The translations under genes and the position numbers were made by a program. The notes beneath the pieces are model-generated. The model was given only the letters and a program-made list of their open reading frames with translations. It searched no databases and was not told the DNA's origin. From Cylindrospermopsis raciborskii Cr2010 (GTDB taxonomy: Bacteria > Cyanobacteriota > Cyanobacteriia > Cyanobacteriales > Nostocaceae): a DNA stretch of 32,000 nt. Position 1 is the first letter of the stretch, and the number at the start of each line of letters is the position of its first letter. Shown one piece after another: positions 2,748 through 18,227 of this stretch. The DNA lies in contig NZ_CP065936.1 of NCBI RefSeq assembly GCF_003367075.2, forward strand, positions 3,600,001 through 3,632,000, given 5' to 3'.

Positions 2748-3068
2748 ATGCAAATCACAATCAATATACCAGATAACTTAACAGATAAATTCCGGGATAA
2801 ATTAGGTCACTTATCCGAAAAGGTCATGAATAAATTAGCTTTAGAAGCTTTTTTAGAAGGATTGATTAATTTTAATGAATTTAGACAGATGTTAAGTTTT
2901 CAGGATGAAAATGCTTTCAAGGCTTTTTTATCAGCAAATTTCCCCCTACATTCTGGGGGGTTATTAAATTTAGCGGGGAGTTGTGCGGATATAGATTTTA
3001 CCATTGATGAAGAAGGGATTTATGATCATAAGAATGACGAAACCATACTAAACTGGCCCATTCAGTAA
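2748..3068 (+). CDS. small UPF0175/antitoxin-like protein with chimeric 3' end (orphan, no adjacent toxin)
   Basis: 106-aa ORF. The N-terminus MQITINIPDNL...LALEAFLEGLINFNEFRQMLSF resembles small cyanobacterial UPF0175/antitoxin-like proteins (memory-based). The last 10 aa, DETILNWPIQ plus stop, match the methyltransferase C-terminus. This is because they lie in the second copy of a 71-bp direct repeat. Confidence 0.5.
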   Translation: MQITINIPDNLTDKFRDKLGHLSEKVMNKLALEAFLEGLINFNEFRQMLSFQDENAFKAFLSANFPLHSGGLLNLAGSCADIDFTIDEEGIYDHKNDETILNWPIQ

Positions 3069-3105
3069 ATATTGCATTAGTTATTTTTCATCTGCTACAA
3101 TCAAA
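3035..3105 (+). repeat. 71-bp direct repeat, copy 2
   Basis: Identical to 2593-2663, offset by 442 bp. It supplies the last codons and stop of the 106-aa ORF. Confidence 0.95.
3093..3101 (+). promoter_or_regulatory. candidate extended -10 box TGcTACAAT upstream of the PLD-SNF2 gene
   Basis: TGnTAnAAT-type extended -10, located 57 bp before the ATG at 3158. It lies within the 12-mer atctgctacaat, which also occurs at 2648-2659 and 15285-15296. Confidence 0.3.
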
Positions 3106-3157
3106 CTAATTATTTCCCCAAACCGCACCTGTGATTTTTAGATATTTTTAACCTCAA

Positions 3158-6100
3158 ATGCTGGACACCTTTATCCAAGAACTGATCCGAAAACAGCGTC
3201 CTTACTACATCATCCAAGGTACACCCATAAAAGGGCTTGAGAATCAGTATTGGTTGGTTTTCAAACATCGTGATGCAGATAACCTGCTGCATAAAGTTGT
3301 TAAATTCTTAGGTGCTAGTAAAAAACAAACAACTTATAAACTATTAAGAATAGACCAAAAAGCTGCTAAGGTCTTTACATATACCCCCATCAAGCAAAAT
3401 GACTTACCCAGCACCAGCTTACTGAGAACATCCAAGCTCGATATTATTGAAAAATTCTTGGATGTGGAAAATGTCACTAAAGAAAAAGCCTTATTAACTG
3501 GTAGTTTCCGAGAAATCTCTGGTCGTCAGCGGCGCTTCAATCTGCCCAATGATTTGGATAAGTACCATCAATTCTTTAGTAAAGTATTAGAACGCAGTCA
3601 AATTTATCGTCGTTCCACAGCTTACTTTGATAGTGGTATTCTGAAATTATATGAGGAACCATTGGCTGCTATTATTCAAGCAGAAGGAAGAATTCGCTTG
3701 TTAGTGGACTGGCAAGGATTTACTAAAAAGTCCGATGTTCAAGAACTGGAAAAACTTCATGACTCTAATTATCGCACTCAGTTTATTCAACGCACCTTAC
3801 AAGAGTTTCTACGAAATTTAAAAGATAGAGAATTAGATCACACAGAAATATTAGCTGAGTTAGTCAGACTAGGATTTATGGTGATTAAACTAGTCAAAAT
3901 GGAATCAGAAAGGGCCATTTATCATAAAAAAACAGGTATTCTCAGCGACTCCCTGGGATATCATATTCAACATGATGGTTCGGACAACTTCACCCGCGCT
4001 GCTTATTCTCGAAATGCTGAAAGTATCACTTTTTTATATTCCTGGGATGAACTGGATACAGAAACCATATTAGAGAACATTCGTCAATTTGATAGGGAAT
4101 GGGAACGGGAAGATATAGCATTTGATATCAGTTTAGAATTCCTCCAAGAAGTATTAGCAGAAAAGGAACGTCGCAGTCAATTAAAAACACCAGTTATTGA
4201 TTCTATCACCCCTGACACCGTTCCCTCGGGAAAAACTACCAACGTTGAAATTACCGGTCAAAACCTAGATCGCGTAGAAGAAATCCAAATTGTTGATAAT
4301 GACCTGGTACAAGTTACCATTAATAGTAAAGAACCAGAGCGTATTTTCGGTCAAATTACTATAAACACAAACCATCCACCAACAGTTTTAAAAGAGTTTA
4401 AGGTAAGAACTACTGAACAAAGTTATGAAATAGCACCGAAAAAACCTCCGGTGGTCACTAATTCCCCAGAAATTCCTGAGTTTGCAGAAATTGAGGGATT
4501 TAAACGAGCAGTAGAAATGATTTTAGCGGGTAATCATGGCACACCTAGTGACTTTCTTTATTGGTTAGCACGGCAAAAACCCCAACAGTTTCAAGTAGAA
4601 CGCAGTGATTTATTAGATGAACTGTTAAATAATAGCACCCTCTTTGAACACCAAAAGTCAGGGGCCCAACATTGTTTAAGAGTGATGAAAAATTTTGGTG
4701 TAGCTGTGTGTGCAGATGCAGTAGGCTTAGGGAAAACCCGTTTAGCTGCTACTGTAGCCAGACTATATCGTCAACAAAATGCACAAGCTAAAATTGCTAT
4801 TATAGCTGCTAAAAAACTTCATCCCAACTGGGAACGGGAACTGGGAGAATTAGGATTATTTCAATCCCGTGATTACGAACCCTATAACAAAAACCTCATG
4901 AGTCGTAAAGGTGGTTTTATAGAAAACTTTGGTCGTTTTGGGGGACCAGACTTAGTAATTATTGATGAGGCCCACGAAGGTATTCGCAATTATAGAAACC
5001 GTATTCACAAAACTTGTTTAGAGATACAAGAACAAGATAGAAAAACTGGCAAGCAACGTCATTTTCTGCTTTTGACCGCCACTCCCTGGAATAATCGCCG
5101 AGAAGATATTTATAATATCCTTTCACCCTTTATTAGTCGTCCAGAAGGTTTTAATGATTTAAAATTCCCCCCAGAAGTAACCCACTGGTTTCAAAATCGC
5201 GAAAGTGGTGTAGAAAATTTTACGGACAATACGGAACTATTTCGCCGCACCTATCGGGAACTGTTTCTTCAACGGACTAGACAAATGCTACGAGAAGCTA
5301 CTCCGGATTTAAACTTGTATGCCAAACGGGTGGCGGAATGGTTACCAGTAAAATTTGAAGATGGTACTGAATTAGCGCTAAATCAAATTTTCACCCAGTT
5401 TGAAACTAGTTTATATATTCCTTTTGCTGACCCTATTCGTTATTTAACCAGTAATGTGGAACAACGTAGTTTGTTATCCAATCAGCGCCGCTTTTTCTTA
5501 CAAAGAGCTGAATCTAGTATGTATGCCTTGGGTAGAACTATTGGGAGTTTTGGTTACCGAATTGAACAAATGCAGAAACGTTTAGAATCAGTTTCTTCTG
5601 ATGCGGAGGGACTAAAGGAGTTTTTACTAGTCCACTATAATTTCAACTCCGATAGAAAAGATAACTCAGAAAAGTTCTTAGATCATTATTTAGATCATTA
5701 TGAAGATGAGGATTATGAAGAAGAGGAGGAAGAAGAGGAAAATGAAGCAAATCAAGAACAAAACCGTCAACAATTAAGACGTTCTATAGATACTCTCACA
5801 GGTAATCTACAGAATGATCCTGACAATGCCCAAAAAATTTATAATCGCATGCTAGATGATTGTGAAAAAGACCTACAACAATTGGATGAAATTCACGCCT
5901 TATTAAAGAATGAGTTTTTGGTTGATCACAAAAAACAACAAGTTACCCAAAAAGTTCGTGAGTTAGTGAAACTTGGTCATAAGGTACTACTAATTTCTAC
6001 CTTTAGCGATACTGTGATTGATTATTATCATTATATGACCCGCGACAGTGCGATCGCAGCTAAGGGTATTGGGATGTTAATTGGTTCCACAAAATTATAT

Positions 6101-7417
6101 TATCCGGACAATTCAGATAAACCACAAAGAGTAAGTCCTGCTTATGTAGTACAACCTAAACAAGGTCGAGTTGTTTCCAATCGCCAAAGTATCTTTAGAT
6201 TGTTTGCTCCACATGCTACCTGTAAAAGTCCTGAAGAGCTTCCCAAACCAGAAGAAGAAATTAGAGTATTAATTGGTTCAGAAACCTTATCGGTGGGTCA
6301 AAATTTGCAAGATGCGGATTATTTGATTAATATTGATTTGCCTTGGAATCCCATGATTTTAGAGCAAAGAATTGGCAGGATTGATAGACCGAAACAACAT
6401 AAGACGGAACATATTTATATTTATTATGCCAACAGCGAAAGTCAGCTACTGAGACAAGCATCTCGATTAACAAATTTACATAAAAAACTAGTAGGTGAAT
6501 TAGCTCAACTAGATGGGAAGATCACAAATATTGAAGACCATCCTCCTATTCCTACTATTTCCAGTGTTAATAAATTAGGATCTTCTATTTATGGTGATAC
6601 ATTATTTGATGATGAAATTTTACCAGGATATGTGGATTTCATCCAAAGTCTAATTAAAGCTAGAAAAATGGAACAAGGTAATTTACAGGAGGATGCTTAT
6701 AAAAAACAAGAAACCAATCGAGATGTTTATACCCAAAATGAAATATTACACAGTGAAGAGCTGAGTGAACTTTTAAAAAAAATGGGCGATGATTACCAAC
6801 CAAATCCCATTGCTCTAGGTCGAATCAATGAACCAAACCAACCAACCGGATTAGTAGCACTAATAGTGCGATATTTCGGACCCAATGGTGAACCTATAAA
6901 AAATAAACAAGAAACCCTATTTTGGAACAATATCACAAGAGAAAAAGATGGTTATGGTTTGGCGATCGCCACTGCTATCAAAACCCCAGCAGCTAACAAT
7001 GTGTTTTCTTCAAAATATTTAATATCATTAGCTGAATCAATTTATGACGAACTGGTGAAACTCAAGGAACAACGCAGTGCAGAACTAGAGGAACCAGAAA
7101 CCCTAGAAAATATTAATATTACTTCGGAACGGATTACCAAAATACAACGTCGTTTAAATAAGCTAGATAGGTTCCCAGGTAATTTAGACCGTGTTATGGT
7201 GAAAAGTACGCTGAAAAAACTGAATAGTTGGAAAGAGGGAAAATCTGTACAAAAACTTTTGAAGGAATATACAGATGGGGATAAATCAAATTTGGATGAT
7301 GAGAAATTTATTATTCAGTTGGTGGAAGATACGGATAGGTTAAACCTAATTTTGGATGAAGGAATTAAACCTACCAGTATGCAAATTTCCTTAACAGCAT
7401 TTTTATTAAGAGGTTGA
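3158..7417 (+). CDS. PLD-like nuclease / IPT-TIG-like / SNF2-family (SF2) helicase fusion protein
   Basis: 1419-aa ORF. N-terminal PLD/Nuc-like region: AYFDSGIL and a single HKD-like motif IYHKKTGILSD...GSDNFTRAAYSRNAES. IPT/TIG-like segment: ITPDTVPSGKTTNVEITGQNLDRVEEIQIV. SNF2/SF2 motifs: LFEHQKSG, ADAVGLGKT (I), LVIIDEAHEG (II, DEAH), LLLTATPWNN (III), and SVGQNLQDADYLINIDLPWNPMILEQRIGRIDRPKQ (V-VI). Acidic tract: YEDEDYEEEEEEEENE. Confidence 0.85.
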   Translation: MLDTFIQELIRKQRPYYIIQGTPIKGLENQYWLVFKHRDADNLLHKVVKFLGASKKQTTYKLLRIDQKAAKVFTYTPIKQNDLPSTSLLRTSKLDIIEKFLDVENVTKEKALLTGSFREISGRQRRFNLPNDLDKYHQFFSKVLERSQIYRRSTAYFDSGILKLYEEPLAAIIQAEGRIRLLVDWQGFTKKSDVQELEKLHDSNYRTQFIQRTLQEFLRNLKDRELDHTEILAELVRLGFMVIKLVKMESERAIYHKKTGILSDSLGYHIQHDGSDNFTRAAYSRNAESITFLYSWDELDTETILENIRQFDREWEREDIAFDISLEFLQEVLAEKERRSQLKTPVIDSITPDTVPSGKTTNVEITGQNLDRVEEIQIVDNDLVQVTINSKEPERIFGQITINTNHPPTVLKEFKVRTTEQSYEIAPKKPPVVTNSPEIPEFAEIEGFKRAVEMILAGNHGTPSDFLYWLARQKPQQFQVERSDLLDELLNNSTLFEHQKSGAQHCLRVMKNFGVAVCADAVGLGKTRLAATVARLYRQQNAQAKIAIIAAKKLHPNWERELGELGLFQSRDYEPYNKNLMSRKGGFIENFGRFGGPDLVIIDEAHEGIRNYRNRIHKTCLEIQEQDRKTGKQRHFLLLTATPWNNRREDIYNILSPFISRPEGFNDLKFPPEVTHWFQNRESGVENFTDNTELFRRTYRELFLQRTRQMLREATPDLNLYAKRVAEWLPVKFEDGTELALNQIFTQFETSLYIPFADPIRYLTSNVEQRSLLSNQRRFFLQRAESSMYALGRTIGSFGYRIEQMQKRLESVSSDAEGLKEFLLVHYNFNSDRKDNSEKFLDHYLDHYEDEDYEEEEEEEENEANQEQNRQQLRRSIDTLTGNLQNDPDNAQKIYNRMLDDCEKDLQQLDEIHALLKNEFLVDHKKQQVTQKVRELVKLGHKVLLISTFSDTVIDYYHYMTRDSAIAAKGIGMLIGSTKLYYPDNSDKPQRVSPAYVVQPKQGRVVSNRQSIFRLFAPHATCKSPEELPKPEEEIRVLIGSETLSVGQNLQDADYLINIDLPWNPMILEQRIGRIDRPKQHKTEHIYIYYANSESQLLRQASRLTNLHKKLVGELAQLDGKITNIEDHPPIPTISSVNKLGSSIYGDTLFDDEILPGYVDFIQSLIKARKMEQGNLQEDAYKKQETNRDVYTQNEILHSEELSELLKKMGDDYQPNPIALGRINEPNQPTGLVALIVRYFGPNGEPIKNKQETLFWNNITREKDGYGLAIATAIKTPAANNVFSSKYLISLAESIYDELVKLKEQRSAELEEPETLENINITSERITKIQRRLNKLDRFPGNLDRVMVKSTLKKLNSWKEGKSVQKLLKEYTDGDKSNLDDEKFIIQLVEDTDRLNLILDEGIKPTSMQISLTAFLLRG

Positions 7418-7544
7418 ATGCAACCAGTAATTACCGCTTATAAAAATAGATGCACATCTAATTAATTATCTTTAAATTAGGGTTTAACTTTCTACTTTGG
7501 GCTGAGAATTTCACTTCATCAACAAATTAGGGTGTGATTATGAG

Positions 7545-8261
7545 CTATGGTAACACTATATCAGCATAACTATATATCTCAATGCCTAGGGATTTCGCTA
7601 CCGGTATAGCTCGCTCATCCACCATGGGGGAAATCACAATTTTACGGTCAACCACTCTATTTTGACTTTTAGCGTAGAATTCCGCCTTGCGACCAAAAAC
7701 GTACATACCAGCTTTGTCAATAGAAGATTTAAGTTCACAGACAATAGTCAGTCCATTTTTGATAATTATATCCAATTCCACCTGCTCTGGGCGTCCAAAT
7801 ACTTCCCCCTCCTGGTCATAAAGGGTGAGATTGAGCACCTCCACTCCAAAGGACTGACCTAAAATAGCTTTCAGTCCATTACGGAAACTAGCTTCAGAAT
7901 AGAGACCCCAGCGGGAACCAATAGCACCAATGGCGCTTTCATAACGACGGTTAGCCTTCTGGATCTCCTCCAGGGTAGCACTGTTCTGGGCTTCGATTCT
8001 GTCAAGACGTTGAGTATTTTCCTCCCATTTGCGATTTTGCTCATCCCACTTACGAGCTTGCTCCTCCCTATCTCGCTGTAACTCATTCAAAACTCGGTCA
8101 AATTTTTCGTCGAACTCAGTCCGGGGGGTGTAATATTCTGACACCGTGCGCAAGACGAAATCCCGTACCCCTGGTTCTTCGGCGAGCTCCCGTAGGGAGT
8201 GCTTCGCAATCGCCCGGGGCAATTCTTTTTGGATTAATGCTTTAATTTCAGCCTCTATCAT
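7545..8261 (-). CDS. coiled-coil + PD-(D/E)XK-like nuclease-fold protein (DUF3782-like), array copy A (divergent edge copy)
   Basis: 238 aa, starting at the ATG (MIEAEIK) conserved in all copies. Module string: a (8028-8048). It has an extra KHSLRELA (24 bp), a C-terminus IEIYSYADIVLP, and several substitutions relative to B-G. The core SEASFRN / VELDIII / IVCELKSS fits the E-D-ExK arrangement of the restriction-endonuclease fold. Confidence 0.75.
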   Translation of the reverse strand: MIEAEIKALIQKELPRAIAKHSLRELAEEPGVRDFVLRTVSEYYTPRTEFDEKFDRVLNELQRDREEQARKWDEQNRKWEENTQRLDRIEAQNSATLEEIQKANRRYESAIGAIGSRWGLYSEASFRNGLKAILGQSFGVEVLNLTLYDQEGEVFGRPEQVELDIIIKNGLTIVCELKSSIDKAGMYVFGRKAEFYAKSQNRVVDRKIVISPMVDERAIPVAKSLGIEIYSYADIVLP

Positions 8262-8387
8262 AGGTTTTGGTATAGATGTTGAAATGCTCCCCTCAAATGG
8301 TAGGGATTCTGGTAACTAGTTTTTAGCTACTTACCCATATTATAACCTCTAATTTTAGGATCTTTGTAAACTCTACTAAGTAAAGAT

Positions 8388-8486
8388 GCACAATTGCAGG
8401 ATGGGTTAGCGGTAGGGTAACCCATGGGGGTGTTGGGTTCATACTTCAACCCAACCTAGCTTCATTTTATATTTAATTCCACTCAC
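8388..8486 (-). repeat. spacer double-hairpin dispersed-repeat element (copy in spacer A/B)
   Basis: The element runs gcacaattgcaggATGGGTTAgcggtagggTAACCCATgggggtGTTGGGTTcatacttcAACCCAACctagcttcat...aattccactcac. It contains two 8-bp stems. Confidence 0.8.
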
Positions 8487-8524
8487 ACACTTAATTCCTT
8501 AACAGAGTAGAGTGTGATTATAAG

Positions 8525-9292
8525 CTATGATACCACCATGTCAGCGTAACTATATGTCTCAATACCTAGGGATTTCGCTACCGGTATAGCCCGTTCATCC
8601 ACCATGGGGGAAATCACAATTTTACGGTCAACCACTCTATTTTGATTTTTAGCGTAGAATTCCGCCTTGCGACCAAAAACGTACATACCAGCTTTGTCAA
8701 TGGAAGATTTAAGTTCACAGACAATAGTCAGTCCATTTTTGATAATTATATCCAATTCCACCTGCTCTGGGCGTCCAAATACTTCCCCCTCCTGGTCATA
8801 AAGGGTAAGATTGAGCACCTCCACCCCGAAGGACTGACCTAAAATAGCTTTCAGTCCATTACGGAAACTAGCTTCAGAATAGAGACCCCAGCGGGAACCA
8901 ATAGCACCAATGGCGCTTTCATAACGACGGTTAGCCTTCTGGATTTCCTCTAGAGTAGCACTATTCTGAGCTTCGATTCTGTCAAGACGTTGAGTATTTT
9001 CCTCCCATTTGCGATTTTGCTCATCCCATTTACGATTTTGCTCATCCCACTTCTGAGCTTGCTCAGCTTGAAAAGCATCGAATTTACGATTTTGCTCATC
9101 CCACTTACGAGCTTGCTCCTCCCTGTCTCGCTGTAACTCATTCAAAACTCGGTCAAATTTTTCGTCGAACTCAGTCCGGGGGGTGTAATATTCTGACACC
9201 GTGCGCAAGACGAAATCCCGTACCCCCGGTTCTTCGGCAATCGCCCTGGGCAATTCTTTTTGGATTAATGCTTTAATTTCAGCCTCTATCAT
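8525..9292 (-). CDS. coiled-coil + PD-(D/E)XK-like nuclease-fold protein, array copy B
   Basis: Start taken at the conserved ATG at 9292; the ORF track extends to a TTG at 9328. Module string abaa (9008-9103). Asn variant (AKNQNR). Confidence 0.75.
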   Translation of the reverse strand: MIEAEIKALIQKELPRAIAEEPGVRDFVLRTVSEYYTPRTEFDEKFDRVLNELQRDREEQARKWDEQNRKFDAFQAEQAQKWDEQNRKWDEQNRKWEENTQRLDRIEAQNSATLEEIQKANRRYESAIGAIGSRWGLYSEASFRNGLKAILGQSFGVEVLNLTLYDQEGEVFGRPEQVELDIIIKNGLTIVCELKSSIDKAGMYVFGRKAEFYAKNQNRVVDRKIVISPMVDERAIPVAKSLGIETYSYADMVVS

Positions 9293-9370
9293 AGGTTTTG
9301 GGTATAGATGTTGAAATGCTCCCCTCAAATGGTAGGGATTCTGGTAACTAGTTTTTAGCTACTTACCCAT

Positions 9371-9376
9371 ATTATA
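9371..9376 (-). promoter_or_regulatory. perfect TATAAT (minus strand) about 79 bp upstream of each array gene start (representative, copy B)
   Basis: The same hexamer sits at the same offset in every spacer: 8339-8344, 9371-9376, 10457-10462, 11468-11473, 12641-12646, 13694-13699 and 14801-14806. The only -35-like TTTACA lies 20 nt upstream, which is suboptimal spacing. TATAAT is not rare in AT-rich DNA. Confidence 0.3.
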
Positions 9377-9419
9377 ACCTCTAATTTTAGGATCTTTGTA
9401 AACTCTACTAAGTAAAGAT

Positions 9420-9518
9420 GCACAATTGCAGGATGGGTTAGCGGTAGGGTAACCCATGGGGGTGTTGGGTTCATACTTCAACCCAACCTAGCTTCATTTT
9501 ATATTTAATTCCACTCAC
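9420..9518 (-). repeat. spacer double-hairpin element (spacer B/C)
   Basis: Same element. Hairpin 1 lies at 9433-9457 and hairpin 2 at 9464-9487. Confidence 0.8.
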
Positions 9519-9556
9519 ACACTTAATTCCTTAACAGAGTAGAGTGTGATTATAAG

Positions 9557-10378
9557 CTATGATACCACCATGTCAGCGTAACTATATGTCTCAATACCTA
9601 GGGATTTCGCTACCGGTATAGCCCGTTCATCCACCATGGGGGAAATCACAATTTTACGGTCAACCACTCTATTTTGACTTTTAGCGTAGAATTCCGCCTT
9701 GCGACCAAAAACGTACATACCAGCTTTGTCAATGGAAGATTTAAGTTCACAGACAATAGTCAGTCCATTTTTGATAATTATATCCAATTCCACCTGCTCT
9801 GGGCGTCCAAATACTTCCCCCTCCTGGTCATAAAGGGTAAGATTGAGCACCTCCACCCCGAAGGACTGACCTAAAATAGCTTTCAGTCCATTACGGAAAC
9901 TAGCTTCAGAATAGAGACCCCAGCGGGAACCAATAGCACCAATGGCGCTTTCATAACGACGGTTAGCCTTCTGGATTTCCTCTAGAGTAGCACTATTCTG
10001 AGCTTCGATTCTGTCAAGACGTTGAGTATTTTCCTCCCATTTGCGATTTTGCTCATCCCATTTACGATTTTGCTCATCCCACTTCTGAGCTTGCTCAGCT
10101 TGAAAAGCATCGAATTTGCGATTTTGCTCATCCCACTTCTGAGCTTGCTCAGCTTGAAAAGCATCGAATTTACGATTTTGCTCATCCCACTTACGAGCTT
10201 GCTCCTCCCTGTCTCGCTGTAACTCATTCAAAACTCGGTCAAATTTTTCGTCGAACTCAGTCCGGGGGGTGTAATATTCTGACACCGTGCGCAAGACGAA
10301 ATCCCGTACCCCCGGTTCTTCGGCAATCGCCCTGGGCAATTCTTTTTGGATTAATGCTTTAATTTCAGCCTCTATCAT
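9557..10378 (-). CDS. coiled-coil + PD-(D/E)XK-like nuclease-fold protein, array copy C
   Basis: Conserved ATG at 10378 (track: TTG at 10414). Module string ababaa (10040-10189). Ser variant (AKSQNR). Confidence 0.75.
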   Translation of the reverse strand: MIEAEIKALIQKELPRAIAEEPGVRDFVLRTVSEYYTPRTEFDEKFDRVLNELQRDREEQARKWDEQNRKFDAFQAEQAQKWDEQNRKFDAFQAEQAQKWDEQNRKWDEQNRKWEENTQRLDRIEAQNSATLEEIQKANRRYESAIGAIGSRWGLYSEASFRNGLKAILGQSFGVEVLNLTLYDQEGEVFGRPEQVELDIIIKNGLTIVCELKSSIDKAGMYVFGRKAEFYAKSQNRVVDRKIVISPMVDERAIPVAKSLGIETYSYADMVVS

Positions 10379-10505
10379 AGGTTTTGGGTATAGATGTTGA
10401 AATGCTCCCCTCAAATGGTAGGGATTCTGGTAACTAGTTTTTAGCTACTTACCCATATTATAACCTCTAATTTTAGGATCTTTGTAAACTCTACTAAGTA
10501 AAGAT

Positions 10506-10604
10506 GCACAATTGCAGGATGGGTTAGCGGTAGGGTAACCCATGGGGGTGTTGGGTTCATACTTCAACCCAACCTAGCTTCATTTTATATTTAATTCCAC
10601 TCAC
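10506..10604 (-). repeat. spacer double-hairpin element (spacer C/D)
   Basis: Same element at the same offset (137 to 39 bp below the next stop codon). Confidence 0.8.
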
Positions 10605-10642
10605 ACACTTAATTCCTTAACAGAGTAGAGTGTGATTATAAG

Positions 10643-11389
10643 CTATGATACCACCATGTCAGCGTAACTATATGTCTCAATACCTAGGGATTTCGCTACC
10701 GGTATAGCCCGTTCATCCACCATGGGGGAAATCACAATTTTACGGTCAACCACTCTATTTTGATTTTTAGCGTAGAATTCCGCCTTGCGACCAAAAACGT
10801 ACATACCAGCTTTGTCAATGGAAGATTTAAGTTCACAGACAATAGTCAGTCCATTTTTGATAATTATATCCAATTCCACCTGCTCTGGGCGTCCAAATAC
10901 TTCCCCCTCCTGGTCATAAAGGGTAAGATTGAGCACCTCCACCCCGAAGGACTGACCTAAAATAGCTTTCAGTCCATTACGGAAACTAGCTTCAGAATAG
11001 AGACCCCAGCGGGAACCAATAGCACCAATGGCGCTTTCATAACGACGGTTAGCCTTCTGGATTTCCTCTAGAGTAGCACTATTCTGAGCTTCGATTCTGT
11101 CAAGACGTTGAGTATTTTCCTCCCATTTGCGATTTTGCTCATCCCACTTCTGAGCTTGCTCAGCTTGAAAAGCATCGAATTTACGATTTTGCTCATCCCA
11201 CTTACGAGCTTGCTCCTCCCTGTCTCGCTGTAACTCATTCAAAACTCGGTCAAATTTTTCGTCGAACTCAGTCCGGGGGGTGTAATATTCTGACACCGTG
11301 CGCAAGACGAAATCCCGTACCCCCGGTTCTTCGGCAATCGCCCTGGGCAATTCTTTTTGGATTAATGCTTTAATTTCAGCCTCTATCAT
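10643..11389 (-). CDS. coiled-coil + PD-(D/E)XK-like nuclease-fold protein, array copy D
   Basis: Conserved ATG at 11389 (track: GTG-extended to 11455). Module string aba (11126-11200). This is the base unit of 1011 bp. Asn variant. Confidence 0.75.
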   Translation of the reverse strand: MIEAEIKALIQKELPRAIAEEPGVRDFVLRTVSEYYTPRTEFDEKFDRVLNELQRDREEQARKWDEQNRKFDAFQAEQAQKWDEQNRKWEENTQRLDRIEAQNSATLEEIQKANRRYESAIGAIGSRWGLYSEASFRNGLKAILGQSFGVEVLNLTLYDQEGEVFGRPEQVELDIIIKNGLTIVCELKSSIDKAGMYVFGRKAEFYAKNQNRVVDRKIVISPMVDERAIPVAKSLGIETYSYADMVVS

Positions 11390-11516
11390 AGGTTTTGGGT
11401 ATAGATGTTGAAATGCTCCCCTCAAATGGTAGGGATTCTGGTAACTAGTTTTCACCTACTTACCCATATTATAACCTCTAATTTTAGGATCTTTGTAAAC
11501 TCTACTAAGTAAAGAT

Positions 11517-11615
11517 GCACAATTGCAGGATGGGTTAGCGGTAGGTTAACCCATGGGGGTGTTGGGTTCATACTTCAACCCAACCTAGCTTCATTTTATA
11601 TTTAATTCCACTCAC
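11517..11615 (-). repeat. spacer double-hairpin element (spacer D/E)
   Basis: Same element, with loop variant ggtaggttaaccc. Confidence 0.8.
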
Positions 11616-11653
11616 ACACTTAATTCCTTAACAGAGTAGAGTGTGATTATAAG

Positions 11654-12562
11654 CTATGATACCACCATGTCAGCGTAACTATATGTCTCAATACCTAGGG
11701 ATTTCGCTACCGGTATAGCCCGTTCATCCACCATGGGGGAAATCACAATTTTACGGTCAACCACTCTATTTTGATTTTTAGCGTAGAATTCCGCCTTGCG
11801 ACCAAAAACGTACATACCAGCTTTGTCAATGGAAGATTTAAGTTCACAGACAATAGTCAGTCCATTTTTGATAATTATATCCAATTCCACCTGCTCTGGG
11901 CGTCCAAATACTTCCCCCTCCTGGTCATAAAGGGTAAGATTGAGCACCTCCACCCCGAAGGACTGACCTAAAATAGCTTTCAGTCCATTACGGAAACTAG
12001 CTTCAGAATAGAGACCCCAGCGGGAACCAATAGCACCAATGGCGCTTTCATAACGACGGTTAGCCTTCTGGATTTCCTCTAGAGTAGCACTATTCTGAGC
12101 TTCGATTCTGTCAAGACGTTGAGTATTTTCCTCCCATTTGCGATTTTGCTCATCCCACTTCTGAGCTTGCTCAGCTTGAAAAGCATCGAATTTGCGATTT
12201 TGCTCATCCCACTTCTGAGCTTGCTCAGCTTGAAAAGCATCGAATTTGCGATTTTGCTCATCCCACTTACGAGCTTGCTCAGCTTGAAAAGCATCGAATT
12301 TGTGATTTTGCTCATCCCACTTCTGAGCTTGCTCAGCCTGAAAAGCATCGAATTTACGATTTTGCTCATCCCACTTACGAGCTTGCTCCTCCCTGTCTCG
12401 CTGTAACTCATTCAAAACTCGGTCAAATTTTTCGTCGAACTCAGTCCGGGGGGTGTAATATTCTGACACCGTGCGCAAGACGAAATCCCGTACCCCCGGT
12501 TCTTCGGCAATCGCCCTGGGCAATTCTTTTTGGATTAATGCTTTAATTTCAGCCTCTATCAT
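11654..12562 (-). CDS. coiled-coil + PD-(D/E)XK-like nuclease-fold protein, array copy E (longest)
   Basis: Conserved ATG at 12562 (track: GTG-extended to 12628). Module string ababababa (12137-12373), with one WDEQNHK and one ...AEQARK variant. Asn variant. Confidence 0.75.
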   Translation of the reverse strand: MIEAEIKALIQKELPRAIAEEPGVRDFVLRTVSEYYTPRTEFDEKFDRVLNELQRDREEQARKWDEQNRKFDAFQAEQAQKWDEQNHKFDAFQAEQARKWDEQNRKFDAFQAEQAQKWDEQNRKFDAFQAEQAQKWDEQNRKWEENTQRLDRIEAQNSATLEEIQKANRRYESAIGAIGSRWGLYSEASFRNGLKAILGQSFGVEVLNLTLYDQEGEVFGRPEQVELDIIIKNGLTIVCELKSSIDKAGMYVFGRKAEFYAKNQNRVVDRKIVISPMVDERAIPVAKSLGIETYSYADMVVS

Positions 12563-12689
12563 AGGTTTTGGGTATAGATGTTGAAATGCTCCCCTCAAAT
12601 GGTAGGGATTCTGGTAACTAGTTTTCACCTACTTACCCATATTATAACCTCTAATTTTAGGATCTTTGTAAACTCTACTAAGTAAAGAT

Positions 12690-12788
12690 GCACAATTGCA
12701 GGATGGGTTAGCGGTAGGTTAACCCATGGGGGTGTTGGGTTCATACTTCAACCCAACCTAGCTTCATTTTATATTTAATTCCACTCAC
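12690..12788 (-). repeat. spacer double-hairpin element (spacer E/F)
   Basis: Same element, with loop variant ggtaggttaaccc. Confidence 0.8.
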
Positions 12789-12826
12789 ACACTTAATTCC
12801 TTAACAGAGTAGAGTGTGATTATAAG

Positions 12827-13615
12827 CTATGATACCACCATGTCAGCGTAACTATATGTCTCAATACCTAGGGATTTCGCTACCGGTATAGCCCGTTCAT
12901 CCACCATGGGGGAAATCACAATTTTACGGTCAACCACTCTATTTTGACTTTTAGCGTAGAATTCCGCCTTGCGACCAAAAACGTACATACCAGCTTTGTC
13001 AATGGAAGATTTAAGTTCACAGACAATAGTCAGTCCATTTTTGATAATTATATCCAATTCCACCTGCTCTGGGCGTCCAAATACTTCCCCCTCCTGGTCA
13101 TAAAGGGTAAGATTGAGCACCTCCACCCCGAAGGACTGACCTAAAATAGCTTTCAGTCCATTACGGAAACTAGCTTCAGAATAGAGACCCCAGCGGGAAC
13201 CAATAGCACCAATGGCGCTTTCATAACGACGGTTAGCCTTCTGGATTTCCTCTAGAGTAGCACTATTCTGAGCTTCGATTCTGTCAAGACGTTGAGTATT
13301 TTCCTCCCATTTGCGATTTTGCTCATCCCATTTACGATTTTGCTCATCCCATTTACGATTTTGCTCATCCCACTTCTGAGCTTGCTCAGCCTGAAAAGCA
13401 TCGAATTTACGATTTTGCTCATCCCACTTACGAGCTTGCTCCTCCCTGTCTCGCTGTAACTCATTCAAAACTCGGTCAAATTTTTCGTCGAACTCAGTCC
13501 GGGGGGTGTAATATTCTGACACCGTGCGCAAGACGAAATCCCGTACCCCCGGTTCTTCGGCAATCGCCCTGGGCAATTCTTTTTGGATTAATGCTTTAAT
13601 TTCAGCCTCTATCAT
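12827..13615 (-). CDS. coiled-coil + PD-(D/E)XK-like nuclease-fold protein, array copy F
   Basis: Conserved ATG at 13615 (track: GTG-extended to 13681). Module string abaaa (13310-13426). Ser variant. Confidence 0.75.
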   Translation of the reverse strand: MIEAEIKALIQKELPRAIAEEPGVRDFVLRTVSEYYTPRTEFDEKFDRVLNELQRDREEQARKWDEQNRKFDAFQAEQAQKWDEQNRKWDEQNRKWDEQNRKWEENTQRLDRIEAQNSATLEEIQKANRRYESAIGAIGSRWGLYSEASFRNGLKAILGQSFGVEVLNLTLYDQEGEVFGRPEQVELDIIIKNGLTIVCELKSSIDKAGMYVFGRKAEFYAKSQNRVVDRKIVISPMVDERAIPVAKSLGIETYSYADMVVS

Positions 13616-13742
13616 AGGTTTTGGGTATAGATGTTGAAATGCTCCCCTCAAATGGTAGGGATTCTGGTAACTAGTTTTCACCTACTTACCCATATTATAA
13701 CCTCTAATTTTAGGATCTTTGTAAACTCTACTAAGTAAAGAT

Positions 13743-13841
13743 GCACAATTGCAGGATGGGTTAGCGGTAGGTTAACCCATGGGGGTGTTGGGTTCATACT
13801 TCAACCCAACCTAGCTTCATTTTATATTTAATTCCACTCAC
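13743..13841 (-). repeat. spacer double-hairpin element (spacer F/G)
   Basis: Same element, with loop variant ggtaggttaaccc. Confidence 0.8.
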
Positions 13842-13879
13842 ACACTTAATTCCTTAACAGAGTAGAGTGTGATTATAAG

Positions 13880-14722
13880 CTATGATACCACCATGTCAGC
13901 GTAACTATATGTCTCAATACCTAGGGATTTCGCTACCGGTATAGCCCGTTCATCCACCATGGGGGAAATCACAATTTTACGGTCAACCACTCTATTTTGA
14001 TTTTTAGCGTAGAATTCCGCCTTGCGACCAAAAACGTACATACCAGCTTTGTCAATGGAAGATTTAAGTTCACAGACAATAGTCAGTCCATTTTTGATAA
14101 TTATATCCAATTCCACCTGCTCTGGGCGTCCAAATACTTCCCCCTCCTGGTCATAAAGGGTAAGATTGAGCACCTCCACCCCGAAGGACTGACCTAAAAT
14201 AGCTTTCAGTCCATTACGGAAACTAGCTTCAGAATAGAGACCCCAGCGGGAACCAATAGCACCAATGGCGCTTTCATAACGACGGTTAGCCTTCTGGATT
14301 TCCTCTAGAGTAGCACTATTCTGAGCTTCGATTCTGTCAAGACGTTGAGTATTTTCCTCCCATTTGCGATTTTGCTCATCCCATTTACGATTTTGCTCAT
14401 CCCATTTACGATTTTGCTCATCCCACTTCTGAGCTTGCTCAGCTTGAAAAGCATCGAATTTGCGATTTTGCTCATCCCATTTACGATTTTGCTCAGCTTG
14501 AAAAGCATCGAATTTACGATTTTGCTCATCCCACTTACGAGCTTGCTCCTCCCTGTCTCGCTGTAACTCATTCAAAACTCGGTCAAATTTTTCGTCGAAC
14601 TCAGTCCGGGGGGTGTAATATTCTGACACCGTGCGCAAGACGAAATCCCGTACCCCCGGTTCTTCGGCAATCGCCCTGGGCAATTCTTTTTGGATTAATG
14701 CTTTAATTTCAGCCTCTATCAT
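13880..14722 (-). CDS. coiled-coil + PD-(D/E)XK-like nuclease-fold protein, array copy G
   Basis: Conserved ATG at 14722 (track: TTG at 14758). Module string ababaaa (14363-14533); the first b reads FDAFQAEQNRK. Asn variant. Confidence 0.75.
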   Translation of the reverse strand: MIEAEIKALIQKELPRAIAEEPGVRDFVLRTVSEYYTPRTEFDEKFDRVLNELQRDREEQARKWDEQNRKFDAFQAEQNRKWDEQNRKFDAFQAEQAQKWDEQNRKWDEQNRKWDEQNRKWEENTQRLDRIEAQNSATLEEIQKANRRYESAIGAIGSRWGLYSEASFRNGLKAILGQSFGVEVLNLTLYDQEGEVFGRPEQVELDIIIKNGLTIVCELKSSIDKAGMYVFGRKAEFYAKNQNRVVDRKIVISPMVDERAIPVAKSLGIETYSYADMVVS

Positions 14723-14849
14723 AGGTTTTGGGTATAGATGTTGAAATGCTCCCCTCAAATGGTAGGGATTCTGGTAACTAGTTTTTAGCTACTTACCCAT
14801 ATTATAACCTCTAATTTTAGGATCTTTGTAAACTCTACTAAGTAAAGAT

Positions 14850-14947
14850 GCACAATTGCAGGATGGGTTAGCGGTAGGTTAACCCATGGGGGTGTTCGGT
14901 TCATATTAAACTTAACCTAGCTTCATTTTATATTTAATTAAACTCAC
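14850..14947 (-). repeat. spacer double-hairpin element (spacer G/H, degenerate second hairpin)
   Basis: The second hairpin is mutated (gtgttcggttcatattaaacttaacc) and the 3' flank reads aattaaactcac. Confidence 0.7.
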
Positions 14948-14985
14948 ACACTTAATTCCTTAACAGAGTAGAGTGTGATTATAAT

Positions 14986-15225
14986 CTATGATACCACTAT
15001 ATGAGCGTAACTATATGTCTCAATGCCTAGGGATTTCGCTACCGGTATAGCTCGTTCGTCCACCATGGGGGAAATCACAATTTTACGGTCAACCACTCTA
15101 TTACGATTTTGCTCAGCTTGAAAAGCATCGAGTTTGCGATTTTTCTCATCCCATTTACGAGCTTGCTCTTCCCTATCTCGCTGTAACTCATTCAAAACTC
15201 GGTCAAATTTTTCGTCGAACTCAGT
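14986..15225 (-). pseudogene. remnant array copy H (5'-truncated, internal deletion of the nuclease-like core)
   Basis: The 3' end (…NRVVDRKIVISPMVDERAIPVAKSLGIETYSYAHIVVS) is fused at ~15102 directly to the module region (…ARKWDEKNRKLDAFQAEQNR). Homology to intact copies stops at 15225, within the TEFDEKF region. There is no conserved start. Confidence 0.85.
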
Positions 15226-15287
15226 AATGTGCAATAGCTAGGTATAGAAAAGGTAAGCGATGCGATCGCCACTTAGGAAGCTAAATC

Positions 15288-15335: not shown

Positions 15336-15989
15336 ATGCTGCTGCGACCAGAACAACGTCTAAAAATAGACGATACCGATGACAACCTATTTTACGACTA
15401 CCCACGATTGGTAACTCATGTTGATGATGGATTCATTCAGCAGCTAACCGACATATACCGTCAATACCTGCAACCTAAAACCCGCATTTTTGATATGATG
15501 AGTAGCTGGGTGTCTCATTTACCACCAGAGGTAGATTTTGACCATGTGGAAGGGCACGGACTAAACGCTGAGGAACTAGCACGCAATCCTCGCTTAAAAC
15601 ATTATTTCGTCCAAAATATTAACGCCCAACCCCAACTACCACTAGCGAATGAGGATTTTCACGCTGTGATCAATTGCGTGTCTGTACAGTACATCCAATA
15701 TCCAGAAGCTATATTTTCAGAAATCCATCGTATTCTCAAACCTGGTGGTGTGGCGATTATTAGTTTTTCCAATCGGATGTTCTATCAGAAGGCAATTCAA
15801 ATCTGGCGTGATGGCACAGAATCATCTAGAGTGGAGTTAGTCAAACGTTATTTTGCCTCCGTGTCCGGTTTTACCACCCCCAAGGTGATTGCTACTAGAT
15901 CACAAGCTCCTCATTTAATACAAAAATGGTTGGGTTTACCTGGAGGAGACCCATTTTACGCGGTGATAGCTCATCGAGCCTCCAAGTAA
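15336..15989 (+). CDS. class I SAM-dependent methyltransferase (Methyltransf_11-like)
   Basis: 217-aa ORF. It contains ILKPGGVAIISFSN and VINCVSVQYI motifs typical of type 11 SAM MTases. The family is conserved in cyanobacteria (memory). Confidence 0.7.
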   Translation: MLLRPEQRLKIDDTDDNLFYDYPRLVTHVDDGFIQQLTDIYRQYLQPKTRIFDMMSSWVSHLPPEVDFDHVEGHGLNAEELARNPRLKHYFVQNINAQPQLPLANEDFHAVINCVSVQYIQYPEAIFSEIHRILKPGGVAIISFSNRMFYQKAIQIWRDGTESSRVELVKRYFASVSGFTTPKVIATRSQAPHLIQKWLGLPGGDPFYAVIAHRASK

Positions 15990-16141
15990 AAATACTTAAA
16001 ATTAAGTAGTATTTCTTAGAAAAGAATAGAAAAATAATAAGGAAATAATAAATTTTTCCTTACAAATGATCACCCTGCATTAAATTGGTAATTGCTTCAA
16101 CAAAAACCACAATAAATTACAATAATTCCAGGAGAATCAAC

Positions 16142-16651
16142 ATGAATTTATCCCGTGGACGCAGGATATTGGCCAGCTTGCTACTGTGCATTTTACTGTT
16201 GACAACAGCTTGCGCAGCCAAAGCACCTAGTCGTTTTGATGCGGTACAACAAGAAAGTACAAAGCAAAAAAGTGGTCAAGCAGTTTCTAAAAACGCCACC
16301 CAGGGTAGTAAATTAAATGCTTTCTTTCCTAAAAGTGAAGATGGCTACAGTCGAGTTTATACCCAGGAGAAAAAGGGGTTCTCGGAGGCTAATTTGAAAA
16401 AAGATGGTAAAGTGATAGCACAGTTAGCCATTTCTGACACCACTAGCACTCCTGGAACGGCGTCAAAATATGCCAATAGCACCAAAACAATAGATGGTTA
16501 TCCAGCAGTGGAACTGGGTAAAACCCAAACCTCTGTTTTGGTAGGTAAGTACCAAGTAAAAGTGATTTCTAAAGACCCATTATTTAACGCCAGTGAGAGA
16601 GAAGATTGGATTGAAAAATTTGATCTTGATGGTTTATCCAAGTTGAAATAA
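16142..16651 (+). CDS. putative lipoprotein, unknown function
   Basis: The internal ATG at 16142 is preceded by an aggag RBS. The signal peptide MNLSRGRRILASLLLCILLLTTAC has a lipobox-like LTTAC. The ORF track starts earlier, at 16085. Confidence 0.65.
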   Translation: MNLSRGRRILASLLLCILLLTTACAAKAPSRFDAVQQESTKQKSGQAVSKNATQGSKLNAFFPKSEDGYSRVYTQEKKGFSEANLKKDGKVIAQLAISDTTSTPGTASKYANSTKTIDGYPAVELGKTQTSVLVGKYQVKVISKDPLFNASEREDWIEKFDLDGLSKLK

Positions 16652-16751: not shown

Positions 16752-17639
16752 GTGAGCAAGCCAATTTTTGAACTAGTTGATGAGTTACCTACCAGTGGTT
16801 TAACTGTTTCTTTGTTGAACGCTTTGGACTTTGTTGCTCCTGGTGAATGGCAAAATACAGTGGGGTTTGTCAATACAATTAAAACTGTTACTGGTGAAAC
16901 TGACGAAGATTTAATTCAAGCCATTGGTGAACGGGCGGTTTACCTTTTTAATGATAAATCTCAAGGTTATCAAACTGCCTTATGGTTGTATCAAACCGTA
17001 GATGGCACTGATAAAGCTTTGGGTGCAGCAGCTTTGGCAAATAAGGTTGGTGAAACCATACCCCTACTTGGTTTCTTAAACTCTATCACCCCCAAACCCG
17101 ATAAAGCCCAAACTATTGACCTCACCTTAAAAATTGTGGTAGAATTAGTGGCTTTTTGTCAAATTAATGGCATTCCCGGTGATAGTATTGGCGATTTTGT
17201 AGCCGCTTTGGGGGAATATGCTGGTGAATCACTAATTAGGATGGTAGCATTAATCTGTGTGGATGGTATTCTCCCCCTCGGTCCTGATTTTGTGCAAAAA
17301 TCATTGGCCTTCCTCAGTAGTATGAATCCCCAGGAATTGGACCAAAATTCTACTTTTAAAAGCATCAAGGATGCAATCCCCGGAAATGGTATCGGGGGAA
17401 AAATAGACTTTATTGGTCAAAGTCTGGACTCTGTTCAGGGTTGGATGAATGGAATAGTTTCTGCTAATGCCTTAACTGCTCAAAAAGTCCTGAATAACAT
17501 CAGTGGTTTTCTTGATTTTGCTGATGATAAATTAGACTATGTAGCAGCCTTTTTAGATGTGTCCACCAACTATTATGAACACACGGGAACTCAAACTCTA
17601 GCTCGTCGCTTGATTGAACGGGCTGTAGCTGAAATATAA
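16752..17639 (+). CDS. hypothetical protein
   Basis: 295-aa ORF with a GTG start preceded by aggag. No motif recognised. Confidence 0.6.
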   Translation: MSKPIFELVDELPTSGLTVSLLNALDFVAPGEWQNTVGFVNTIKTVTGETDEDLIQAIGERAVYLFNDKSQGYQTALWLYQTVDGTDKALGAAALANKVGETIPLLGFLNSITPKPDKAQTIDLTLKIVVELVAFCQINGIPGDSIGDFVAALGEYAGESLIRMVALICVDGILPLGPDFVQKSLAFLSSMNPQELDQNSTFKSIKDAIPGNGIGGKIDFIGQSLDSVQGWMNGIVSANALTAQKVLNNISGFLDFADDKLDYVAAFLDVSTNYYEHTGTQTLARRLIERAVAEI

Positions 17640-17729: not shown

Positions 17730-18227
17730 CTAAAATGGTATCTCGTCCGGATTAGGTGTTGGCTGAATCACTGGTTGAGGACTTACCACTTGAGCTACAG
17801 GTTGAGGACTGGGATCCAAGGTGGTTACTGAAGGTGCTGTTTCTGTTGGGGTGGGAGTGGGTCTACTTGCTTGATAGTTGGGGGTCTCTTGGGAAGGTTG
17901 TGCAGCTGATTGACTAGTTCCCGTATTTTTGGTGACAGGGTGAATTTTTTGCACTGTCAACTCAGCGCGTTTTTCTTTAAACCCTTCAGGACGATCAAAG
18001 GTGTTCATTCCCAGACGTCCCTCTAAAATCACCCGGTCACCTGCATGATAATTCTGATGAATATCCTTGGCTAAATTCCCCCAACCTACTACTTTTAAGG
18101 GATGGGTAGGGTCATCAGTACGTAATCCTGGTACATGAACTATCATCTCTGTGACTTCTAACCCCTCTGTTGTGTGTCTCAATTGAGGTTCATCATAAAT
18201 CTCTACCATTAAGATACAATTGTTCAT
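17730..18227 (-). CDS. ssb: single-stranded DNA-binding protein
   Basis: 165 aa. It has an N-terminal OB-fold-like region, a P/Q/T-rich linker, and a C-terminal acidic tip PDEIPF resembling the SSB DDIPF tail. Confidence 0.75.
   Translation of the reverse strand: MNNCILMVEIYDEPQLRHTTEGLEVTEMIVHVPGLRTDDPTHPLKVVGWGNLAKDIHQNYHAGDRVILEGRLGMNTFDRPEGFKEKRAELTVQKIHPVTKNTGTSQSAAQPSQETPNYQASRPTPTPTETAPSVTTLDPSPQPVAQVVSPQPVIQPTPNPDEIPF

Follow-up and report, generated by a model that had tools for sequence, protein, structure and literature searches.

A tandem array of predicted stalked endonuclease genes with homogenized domains and unequal stalk lengths in Cylindrospermopsis raciborskii

Introduction

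Why would a bacterial chromosome keep seven intact, nearly identical genes head to tail, each distinguished from the others by the length of one internal segment? This question is raised by a locus of the bloom-forming cyanobacterium Cylindrospermopsis raciborskii Cr2010 that lies in a 32,000-nucleotide (nt) stretch of its genome sequence (NZ_CP065936.1, positions 3,600,001 to 3,632,000; the whole stretch is called the window here, and coordinates are counted from its first letter). On the minus strand at 7545-15234, the list of open reading frames (ORFs) in the window contains seven intact genes and one remnant, arranged head to tail, and each intact gene encodes a predicted endonuclease with a stalk built of repeats. 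An earlier account made from the letters alone (the sequence-only reading) had described this arrangement and had considered both a very recent amplification and an assembly artefact. Here we present evidence that the genes evolve in concert and that their stalks retain unequal lengths while the rest of the gene is homogenized. The best overall explanation, to which we assign a probability of roughly 0.55, is a concerted array of endonucleases that are oligomerized through their stalks and act in genome conflict.

The family to which these genes belong was predicted in 2007, under the name DUF1626, to comprise PD-(D/E)XK nucleases that have a coiled coil at the N-terminus, and profile analysis tied it to DUF91 and to Hjc/Hje (PMC1913061). 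DUF3782 was subsequently described as the coiled-coil stalk of these endonucleases (Hartmann et al. 2016, PMC4786415). Horizontal transfer of the family has been noted, together with a cyanobacterial clade that is 'mostly C. raciborskii' (PMC3424549). The literature agrees with the sequence-only reading that the family is functionally uncharacterized (PMC1913061, PMC3424549, PMC4786415).

Results

A tandem array at a conserved locus

The seven intact minus-strand ORFs have stop codons at 7545, 8525, 9557, 10643, 11654, 12827 and 13880. Counted from a conserved ATG (MIEAEIK...), copies A to G encode proteins of 238, 255, 273, 248, 302, 262 and 280 amino acids (aa) and occupy positions 7545-8261, 8525-9292, 9557-10378, 10643-11389, 11654-12562, 12827-13615 and 13880-14722, respectively. 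Copy D, which was the query for our searches and structure models, is identical to a protein (P0012) present in three other genomes, and the array proteins in general are the same as, or very close to, known proteins of C. raciborskii. The stalk of each protein is composed of two kinds of module, a short one with the sequence WDEQNRK (s; 7 aa, 21 bp) and a long one with the sequence WDEQNRKFDAFQAEQAQK (L; 18 aa, 54 bp), and Tandem Repeats Finder detects 21-bp and 54-bp periods inside the genes. The L modules always precede the s modules. Read from the methyltransferase side of the array, that is, from copy G to copy A, the stalks are LLsss, Lsss, LLLLs, Ls, LLss, Lss and s, and all seven differ. 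The longest belongs to copy E, in which approximately 79 residues are variable and would extend over about 12 nm in helical form. At the helicase edge of the array, copy A has a single 7-aa module and is further marked by an 8-aa insertion (AKHSLREL) and by a C-terminus that reads ...ADIVLP. Remnant H (14986-15234, minus strand, 82 aa) is without the N-terminal domain, and an internal deletion fuses its stalk to the last 41 codons. The number of copies, their stop codons, the ORF lengths of 238-302 aa and the spacers of 263 or 264 bp are all as the sequence-only reading had set them down.

The left boundary of the array is a divergent gene for a 217-aa Methyltransf_11 protein (15336-15989, plus strand), and the right boundary is a convergent gene for a 1419-aa protein with PLD and SNF2 helicase domains (3158-7417, plus strand). 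The helicase gene adjoins the array in every strain examined and in Raphidiopsis brookii D9. A look-up of the genes that encode copy D, copy A and an edge copy placed the same locus, between the same two boundary genes, in four other assemblies. While the window contains seven copies and the remnant, there are 8 copies and a remnant in CP091284 (Cr2010), 11 copies in LYXA01000001, 12 copies and a remnant in CP195152, and at least 11 copies in JBPFSD010000001. The copy-number variation for which a comparison of sister strains had been proposed is therefore found, ranging from 7 to 12 between strains whose flanks are 99.5-99.98% identical. The 82-aa remnant recurs unchanged in two of these loci (L002 and L003), and LYXA01 has a 181-aa truncated copy at that position.

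One possibility is that the array is an assembly artefact, in which a collapsed or mis-expanded repeat has been rendered as seven copies. Drafts assembled from short reads do break at this point, and the contigs of R. brookii D9 end inside or beside copies. However, the array is resolved in three records of megabase scale and in one complete chromosome (3.8-4.07 Mb), and the strains have part of their unit order in common; the order in the window is that of CP091284 minus one unit. Each unit also has its own stalk architecture and single-nucleotide variants. Given that the same locus is found in four other assemblies with unit-specific stalks and variants, an artefact is extremely improbable and is excluded for practical purposes. 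In all five assemblies the 7-12 copies are intact, the sole decayed copy being the one at the array edge. We conclude with high confidence that the locus is a real tandem array of functional genes that evolve in concert.

The repeated units also give rise to repeated ORFs of other kinds. Antisense to the nuclease core of every unit is a 66-aa plus-strand ORF with a TTG start (7662-7862, 8642-8842, 9674-9874, 10760-10960, 11771-11971, 12944-13144 and 13997-14197), and further ORFs in other frames traverse the stalk repeats. These ORFs are most likely by-products of the repeats rather than genes.

Inner copies are homogenized and the edge copy is not

We compared the inner copies, B to G, outside their stalks. 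Their 5' parts (189 nt) are the same throughout, their 3' parts (483 nt) differ at 0.53 positions on average and their spacers at approximately 4, so that units of 1.0-1.2 kb are about 99-100% identical. This similarity, which had been noticed by eye, is far beyond chance. Such variants as exist are carried in linked blocks that form a mosaic among units and strains. The 3' part of copy A is identical to that of the edge copies in loci L001 and L003, that is, in three strains. Set against the inner copies, it has 19 differences in 483 nt within the window and 19-23 in 483 over the three strains. Between edge and inner copies, the proportion of synonymous differences (pS) is 0.13 and the proportion of nonsynonymous differences (pN) is 0.013, or 0.003 without the last 12 codons, for a pN/pS of approximately 0.1. 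That these differences are mostly synonymous indicates that the array genes are under purifying selection. In addition, a pS of 0.13 set against flanks that differ by only 0.02-0.5% between strains indicates that edge and inner copies diverged long before the strains did.

Comparison of orthologous units points to the process that keeps the inner copies alike. Between the window and CP091284, five of the seven orthologous units have 2-7 differences in the 483 nt of the 3' part, which is far above what the flanks predict (99.6-99.98% identity between strains), indicating that the differences were acquired by sequence exchange, that is, by conversion, and not by new mutation. The copies of R. 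brookii D9 have 1-4 differences among themselves and 33-46 differences from the C. raciborskii copies, of which the edge copy is the closest to D9. The clustering of copies by species, the mosaic blocks, the less homogenized edge and the lineage-uniform spacers together indicate concerted evolution with reduced exchange at the edge, and we attribute the near-identity of the inner copies to ongoing gene conversion. Conversion in short tracts keeps the N-terminal and nuclease parts of the inner copies alike, units are gained or lost from time to time, and the copy at the helicase end escapes homogenization.

The sequence-only reading had taken the seven intact copies to imply a very recent amplification or selection for dosage or diversity. 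A recent, unstable amplification is not supported, given the presence of the array in all five C. raciborskii assemblies and in D9, its distinct stalks and an edge copy whose divergence exceeds that of the strain flanks.

Stalk lengths differ within arrays and are stable between strains

As alpha-helices, the variable stalk segments of the seven copies measure approximately 1.1, 3.8, 4.8, 5.8, 7.5, 8.5 and 11.8 nm. The AlphaFold model has one 74-residue helix for the stalk, and since the hydrophobic residues are spaced 7-3-8, which corresponds to a heptad plus a hendecad, the stalk fits a coiled coil. The WDEQNRK heptad itself is conserved from cyanobacteria to gammaproteobacteria and Chloroflexi.

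All seven pairs of orthologous units between the window and CP091284 have matching stalks (0-1 nucleotide differences), and so do nine of the ten pairs between JBPFSD01 and CP195152, the tenth differing by a change from LLs to Ls. Within each array nearly all stalks differ, although they are stable between strains, and they are more stable than the coding sequence that surrounds them. Similar sets occur in small tandem arrays outside Cylindrospermopsis/Raphidiopsis, which are independent of its array. A Chromatiaceae array (L063, 600-3000) has three tandem copies with near-identical end domains and identical nuclease parts, and its stalks have roughly 0, 39 and 36 residues. Two copies in Prochloron (L019, 280-2000) likewise have near-identical end domains and stalks that differ by 65 residues, a pair in Lamprocystis purpurea (L059, 8100-10700) combines near-identical end domains with unequal stalks, and a pair in Anaerolineae (L067, 9000-10550) is more diverged.

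These observations bear on whether the array could be a neutral leftover of amplification, with redundant copies and with stalk differences that represent replication-slippage noise. Slippage and unequal exchange typically act on DNA repeats such as these of 21 and 54 bp, and the one L-L-s to L-s change separates two near-identical strains. However, slippage noise in redundant copies is difficult to reconcile with the intactness of 7-12 copies in five assemblies, decay being confined to the array edge, or with a pN/pS of about 0.1. Nor would it account for stalks that are kept in 7/7 and 9/10 orthologous units while the flanking coding sequence is converted, or for the recurrence of identical domains with unequal stalks in independent small arrays of other phyla. 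We therefore consider a neutral leftover improbable.

The array protein has a PD-(D/E)XK core

Copy D matches the Pfam model DUF3782 (PF12644) over model positions 1-78 of 78 with a score of 89.5 bits (E 1.6e-25) and the model PDDEXK_10 (PF07788) over 1-74 of 74 with a score of 74.0 bits (E 9.5e-21), the gathering scores being 24.4 and 21.2 bits, respectively. Copy A matches the same two models (DUF3782, 92.1 bits, E 2.4e-26; PDDEXK_10, E 1.2e-20). The DUF3782 label given by the sequence-only reading was thus the right one. In an alignment of 40 homologs, conservation is high over the first 63 residues and over the last ~135, and the region between them varies in length. The residues of the proposed E/D/ExK arrangement, E133 (SEASFRN), D174 (VELDIII) and E186/K188 (CELKSS), are invariant in this alignment, and in the structure model they sit on the elements expected of PD-(D/E)XK enzymes, namely helix 1, strand 2 and strand 3. 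The protein has three parts: a 63-aa N-terminal helical domain, a single-helix stalk and a C-terminal PD-(D/E)XK core with the E...D...ExK motif. Nuclease activity is thereby predicted for it.

The AlphaFold model of the core consists of a helix at 133-148, strands at 151-159, 169-178 and 181-187, a helix at 193-209 and a strand at 216-220, with pLDDT values of 85-94; a domain-only model has a pLDDT of 84.7 and a pTM of 0.78. In a Foldseek search of the Protein Data Bank (PDB), the top matches are AF1548 (1y88), EndoMS/NucS (5gkj, 2vld) and VC1899, and MspJI is also matched. This placement of the core bears out the restriction-endonuclease fold that had been proposed from its motifs. A library of viral structures returned only generic matches to that fold. 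At the sequence level, a profile search of all PDB sequences found no nuclease match (best E 0.18, to coiled-coil proteins), and no family model in NCBIfam matched the array protein. Searching 1.84 billion representative proteins with the 63-aa N-terminal domain alone gave 118 matches, nearly all N-terminal, and the domain was found in no other architecture, since every long match that was scanned has DUF3782 and PDDEXK_10. The family itself has thousands of members (3540 matches in our protein searches), which NCBI labels 'PD-(D/E)XK nuclease family protein' or 'DUF3782 domain-containing protein'.

The array protein can be compared with several known systems. By its matches to both Pfam models it belongs with the coiled-coil endonucleases of archaea and bacteria in PDDEXK_10 (formerly DUF1626; COG5493). 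Its motif III keeps the lysine of ExK, whereas many archaeal members of DUF1626 have a threonine (PMC1913061). The predicted core shares the minimal PD-(D/E)XK fold with NucS/EndoMS (5gkj, 2vld) and AF1548 (1y88). In contrast, its helical N-terminal domain and its stalk have no counterpart in NucS or AF1548; the dimerizing DNA-binding domain at the N-terminus of NucS is absent, and there is no sequence-level similarity to NucS. RmuC, a stand-alone protein in which a long helical/coiled-coil region is followed by a restriction-endonuclease-fold domain, has the same overall design without a modular repeat stalk. The resemblance to RmuC is one of architecture only, as the array protein has a different N-terminal domain and no match to the RmuC Pfam model (a scan at E <= 0.01 returned only DUF3782 and PDDEXK_10).

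A lineage-specific insertion occupies every spacer

Throughout the C. raciborskii array the spacers are 263 or 264 bp long. A representative 264-bp spacer is at 11390-11653 on the minus strand, and the others are at 8262-8524 (263 bp), 9293-9556, 10379-10642, 12563-12826, 13616-13879 and 14723-14985 on the same strand. Those of R. brookii D9 are 37 nt long and share homology with the final ~35 nt of their C. raciborskii counterparts, indicating that approximately 225 nt of the latter is lineage-specific and has spread to every unit. Where this insertion meets the preceding stop codon, the junction creates a strong promoter-like site, CTGACA-16 nt-TATAAT, with 11 of 12 consensus positions. The site at 11646-11673 (minus strand) straddles the stop codon of the upstream copy and is repeated at 8517-8544, 9549-9576, 10635-10662, 12819-12846 and 13872-13899 on that strand. 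It is weaker downstream of copy A (CTGATA/CATAAT) and is not present in the R. brookii spacer.

The spacer also contains, at 11503-11615 on the minus strand, a copy of a dispersed element with the hairpin GGTTGGGTT...AACCCAAC. A further ~110-nt copy, with the hairpin TAGGTTGGGTTGA...AACCC, is located at 29449-29555 (plus strand) between a methyltransferase gene and a glycosyltransferase gene, and the middle of every array spacer matches it at 75% identity. The element probably represents a small mobile sequence or repeat that the array has captured. Rfam at gathering thresholds gave no match anywhere in the window, and no tRNA or tmRNA genes were found there. A structured RNA in the spacers was considered and dropped, given the lack of an Rfam match, an ordinary folding energy and a degenerate hairpin.

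Relatives are patchily distributed and usually single

The distribution of the family across bacteria is patchy. The closest relatives outside the genus are in Synechocystis, Pseudanabaena and Snowella, and Nostocales other than Raphidiopsis account for none of the 80 best genome matches. Since its closest relatives are not in other Nostocales, the gene was probably acquired horizontally. In 78 loci of other species it is usually single, with occasional pairs and triplets, in contrast to the 7-12 copies with graded stalks that evolve in concert in C. raciborskii. Several dispersed copies may occur in one genome; Crocosphaera XPORK-15E and R. brookii D9, for instance, each have the gene at three loci.

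In D9 (L004, 8523-11835; L008, 1-5120), the family gene adjoins the same helicase gene as in C. raciborskii. The stalks there have 25, 0 and at least 60 residues, and a 3'-end remnant of a further copy is found upstream of the first full copy; because the contigs end inside or beside copies, this count may be incomplete. The left neighbor differs from that of C. raciborskii and encodes an AA_kinase and PUA protein, which we read as a glutamate 5-kinase (proB-like).

A different view of the gene is that it encodes a nuclease for chromosome maintenance, specific for structures or mismatches in the manner of NucS or Hjc, which would serve repair or recombination in polyploid cells and whose dosage would be raised by amplification. 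The nearest solved folds are indeed those of AF1548 and the mismatch/repair nuclease EndoMS/NucS, profile analysis has linked DUF1626 to DUF91 and Hjc/Hje (PMC1913061), and the gene is a solo chromosomal one that is not in phage or plasmid collections. However, its patchy distribution suggests horizontal transfer, as does the lack of other Nostocales among the 80 best genome matches (PMC3424549), and its copy number varies from 7 to 12 between near-identical strains. The protein also lacks the NucS N-terminal domain and any sequence-level match to solved structures, and seven stalk lengths are not expected of a housekeeping repair enzyme. A maintenance role is thus rather unlikely.

Genome context of the array

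The plus-strand genes at 1-7417 form a three-gene restriction-like island that is convergent with the array. The first ORF (134-2626) encodes a Type IIG/ISP-like methyltransferase with a Type_ISP_C specificity domain (PADLOC model REase_MTase_IIG, E 1.6e-208); it runs off the start of the window, and its counterpart in another locus (L082) has 1073 aa. The second (2748-3068) encodes 106 aa without a family match. The third is the helicase gene at the array boundary, whose 1419-aa product combines a PLD nuclease domain (PbeA-like, E 1.7e-35), a TIG domain and an SNF2 helicase. It matches the PbeA, PLD_Helicase, DrmD and DpdE models but does not reach the cut-offs that NCBIfam sets for the anti-phage PLD protein, DrmD and DpdE, suggesting that it may belong to an undescribed split variant of a Type ISP-like system.

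We also surveyed the neighbors of family members elsewhere, 144 immediate neighbors at 75 loci in all. Uma2 accounts for 16 of the 144 and DUF29 for 4, the remainder being unrelated genes of housekeeping or miscellaneous kinds. The PADLOC match that these neighbors give most often is the defense candidate PDC-S03 (2-5 members per model), followed by a few DpdF, BrxH, mad3 and RtcR-CARF matches. On the basis of the adjoining restriction-like island, the Uma2 and PDC-S03 neighbors and the patchy distribution, we tentatively favor a role in defense or genome conflict, in which the protein would cut foreign or aberrant DNA.

The array protein matches none of the models of validated PADLOC defense systems (e.g. 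Shedu, Lamassu and other nuclease-based systems). Its only PADLOC match is to PDLC01085 (C3a181), over residues 43-240 (E 5.3e-18), a region that covers the stalk and the PD-(D/E)XK core. C3a181 is a candidate type III CRISPR accessory cluster with three CRISPR-adjacent occurrences and an association score of 25.55% (Shah et al. 2018, PMC6546367), and its seed is Tpen_1359 of Thermofilum pendens, one of the species reported to carry DUF1626 (PMC1913061). The 'Diadenylate cyclase' label of PDLC01085 does not fit a PD-(D/E)XK core and seems to be an annotation error inherited from Shah et al. (2018). Neither the window ORFs that were scanned against Pfam nor the common neighbor families elsewhere include a cas family. 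With three loci and an association of about 25%, we judged the case for a type III CRISPR accessory role to be weak.

The survey likewise bears on whether the gene is a selfish nuclease, free-standing and homing-like or addictive, that would spread and be duplicated locally to its own advantage, with the array as the product of its own activity. Solo genes occur at unrelated loci in different genomes, often beside Uma2 and DUF29, which are multi-copy, nuclease-like families of cyanobacteria; local duplication recurs in several phyla; and several dispersed copies can be present in one genome, as in Crocosphaera XPORK-15E and R. brookii D9. On the other hand, no transposase or integrase is among the commonest neighbor families, the units have no transposase, integrase, intron or intein context, and no immunity or antitoxin partner gene was found. 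The position of the array is stable in all C. raciborskii strains, phage and plasmid copies are lacking, and all three parts of the protein are under strong purifying selection. We accordingly give a selfish nuclease little credence. As a specific candidate, a homing or mobile-element nuclease was rejected because of the lack of phage and plasmid matches, the shared locus in five assemblies and the lack of a mobile context.

Elsewhere in the window, one ORF at 21227-23176 (minus strand) joins an FAD-dependent oxidoreductase (Pfam DAO) to the thiazole synthase ThiG in a protein of 649 aa. Housekeeping genes that are conserved in other strains include a TldD/PmbA metallopeptidase pair (18273-21138, minus strand) and a single-strand-binding protein (17730-18227, minus strand). 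No informative family match was obtained for 16085-16651 (plus strand), which has a hydrophobic, lipoprotein-like N-terminus, 16752-17639 (plus strand), 23279-23707 (minus strand) or 25813-27045 (plus strand), in which a C-terminal zinc ribbon is all that was recognized. Of these four, 16085-16651 and 16752-17639 are conserved beside the array in other strains.

Discussion

The explanation that we favor is that C. raciborskii maintains a concerted array of stalk-oligomerized endonucleases that act in genome conflict. The predicted coiled-coil stalk and the invariant motifs of the core make it fairly probable that the protein is an active nuclease that oligomerizes via its stalk. A parallel coiled-coil stalk would bring two or three nuclease domains together to form a Mg-dependent DNA endonuclease. 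The N-terminal domain may serve as an anchor or sensor, in which case the length of the stalk would set the reach of the nuclease from that anchor. In C. raciborskii, each unit would be transcribed from its own promoter, and the array would supply both a high dosage and a graded series of stalk lengths (~1-12 nm).

Several observations weigh against this explanation. The best fold matches are weak, with E values of 3e-4 to 1.5e-3 and TM scores of 0.5-0.56 (probability 1.0; the highest TM was obtained with the domain-only model), and our literature search found no functional study of the DUF3782/PDDEXK_10 family. The promoter assignment is a consensus match only. The folding energy of the spacer is unremarkable (z -1.25), and its hairpin, which is degenerate in most spacers of one strain (L001), is probably not functional. 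A tblastn search of phage and plasmid collections gave no match, and no conserved partner gene emerged from the neighbor survey. The adjacency of the array and the restriction-like island is limited to Cylindrospermopsis/Raphidiopsis and could be plain synteny. Finally, the stalks could have become diverse neutrally, if conversion tracts are simply blocked wherever lengths differ.

This last point concerns the feature of the array that is the most difficult to explain. Either conversion tracts halt at a length difference or the set of unequal stalk lengths is selected. The retention of stalk-length diversity leans toward selection for diversity, short of proof. One form that such selection might take, though we rate it unlikely, is a 'ruler set', in which otherwise identical endonucleases are kept at unequal stalk lengths that set the distance or geometry between anchor and cut. 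Conversion would then homogenize the anchor and catalytic domains, and selection, or a conversion barrier that is exploited, would preserve the length series.

Parts of this picture have counterparts in other systems. Arrays of the rDNA type have homogenized inner units and diverged edge units and change in copy number by unequal exchange, and streptococcal M-like proteins and trimeric autotransporter stalks vary in rod length by means of in-frame DNA repeats. Unlike these, the array encodes a cytoplasmic nuclease, which is neither a surface antigen nor an RNA gene. Its length variants coexist as paralogs in one genome, whereas those of the M-like proteins and autotransporters are alleles, and in contrast to repeat-rod proteins its stalks are steadier than the flanking coding sequence.

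The family, its fold and its annotation are already in public databases. In the literature on the family and on C. raciborskii, including the CS-505/D9 genome paper, we found no description of the array or of its stalk-length diversity. The same is true of the sweep of a promoter-bearing insertion through all spacers, and of the retention of unequal stalk lengths in distant phyla while the rest of the gene is homogenized. Because the locus breaks short-read assemblies, the copy numbers of the family in draft genomes are underestimated.

As a clean bacterial case of concerted evolution, the array has a diverged edge, a spacer insertion that has swept through its units and conversion tracts that spare one segment of the gene. 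It is also a natural experiment, in which 7-12 paralogs that differ essentially only in stalk length are available in several sequenced strains. If stalk length is functional, these nucleases may vary their reach rather than their sequence specificity, and the array would offer a handle for biochemistry. Were the ruler set to prove real, the same solution would have arisen repeatedly in cyanobacteria, purple sulfur bacteria and Chloroflexi, and it would represent an undescribed way for nucleases to diversify, by reach instead of by sequence specificity.

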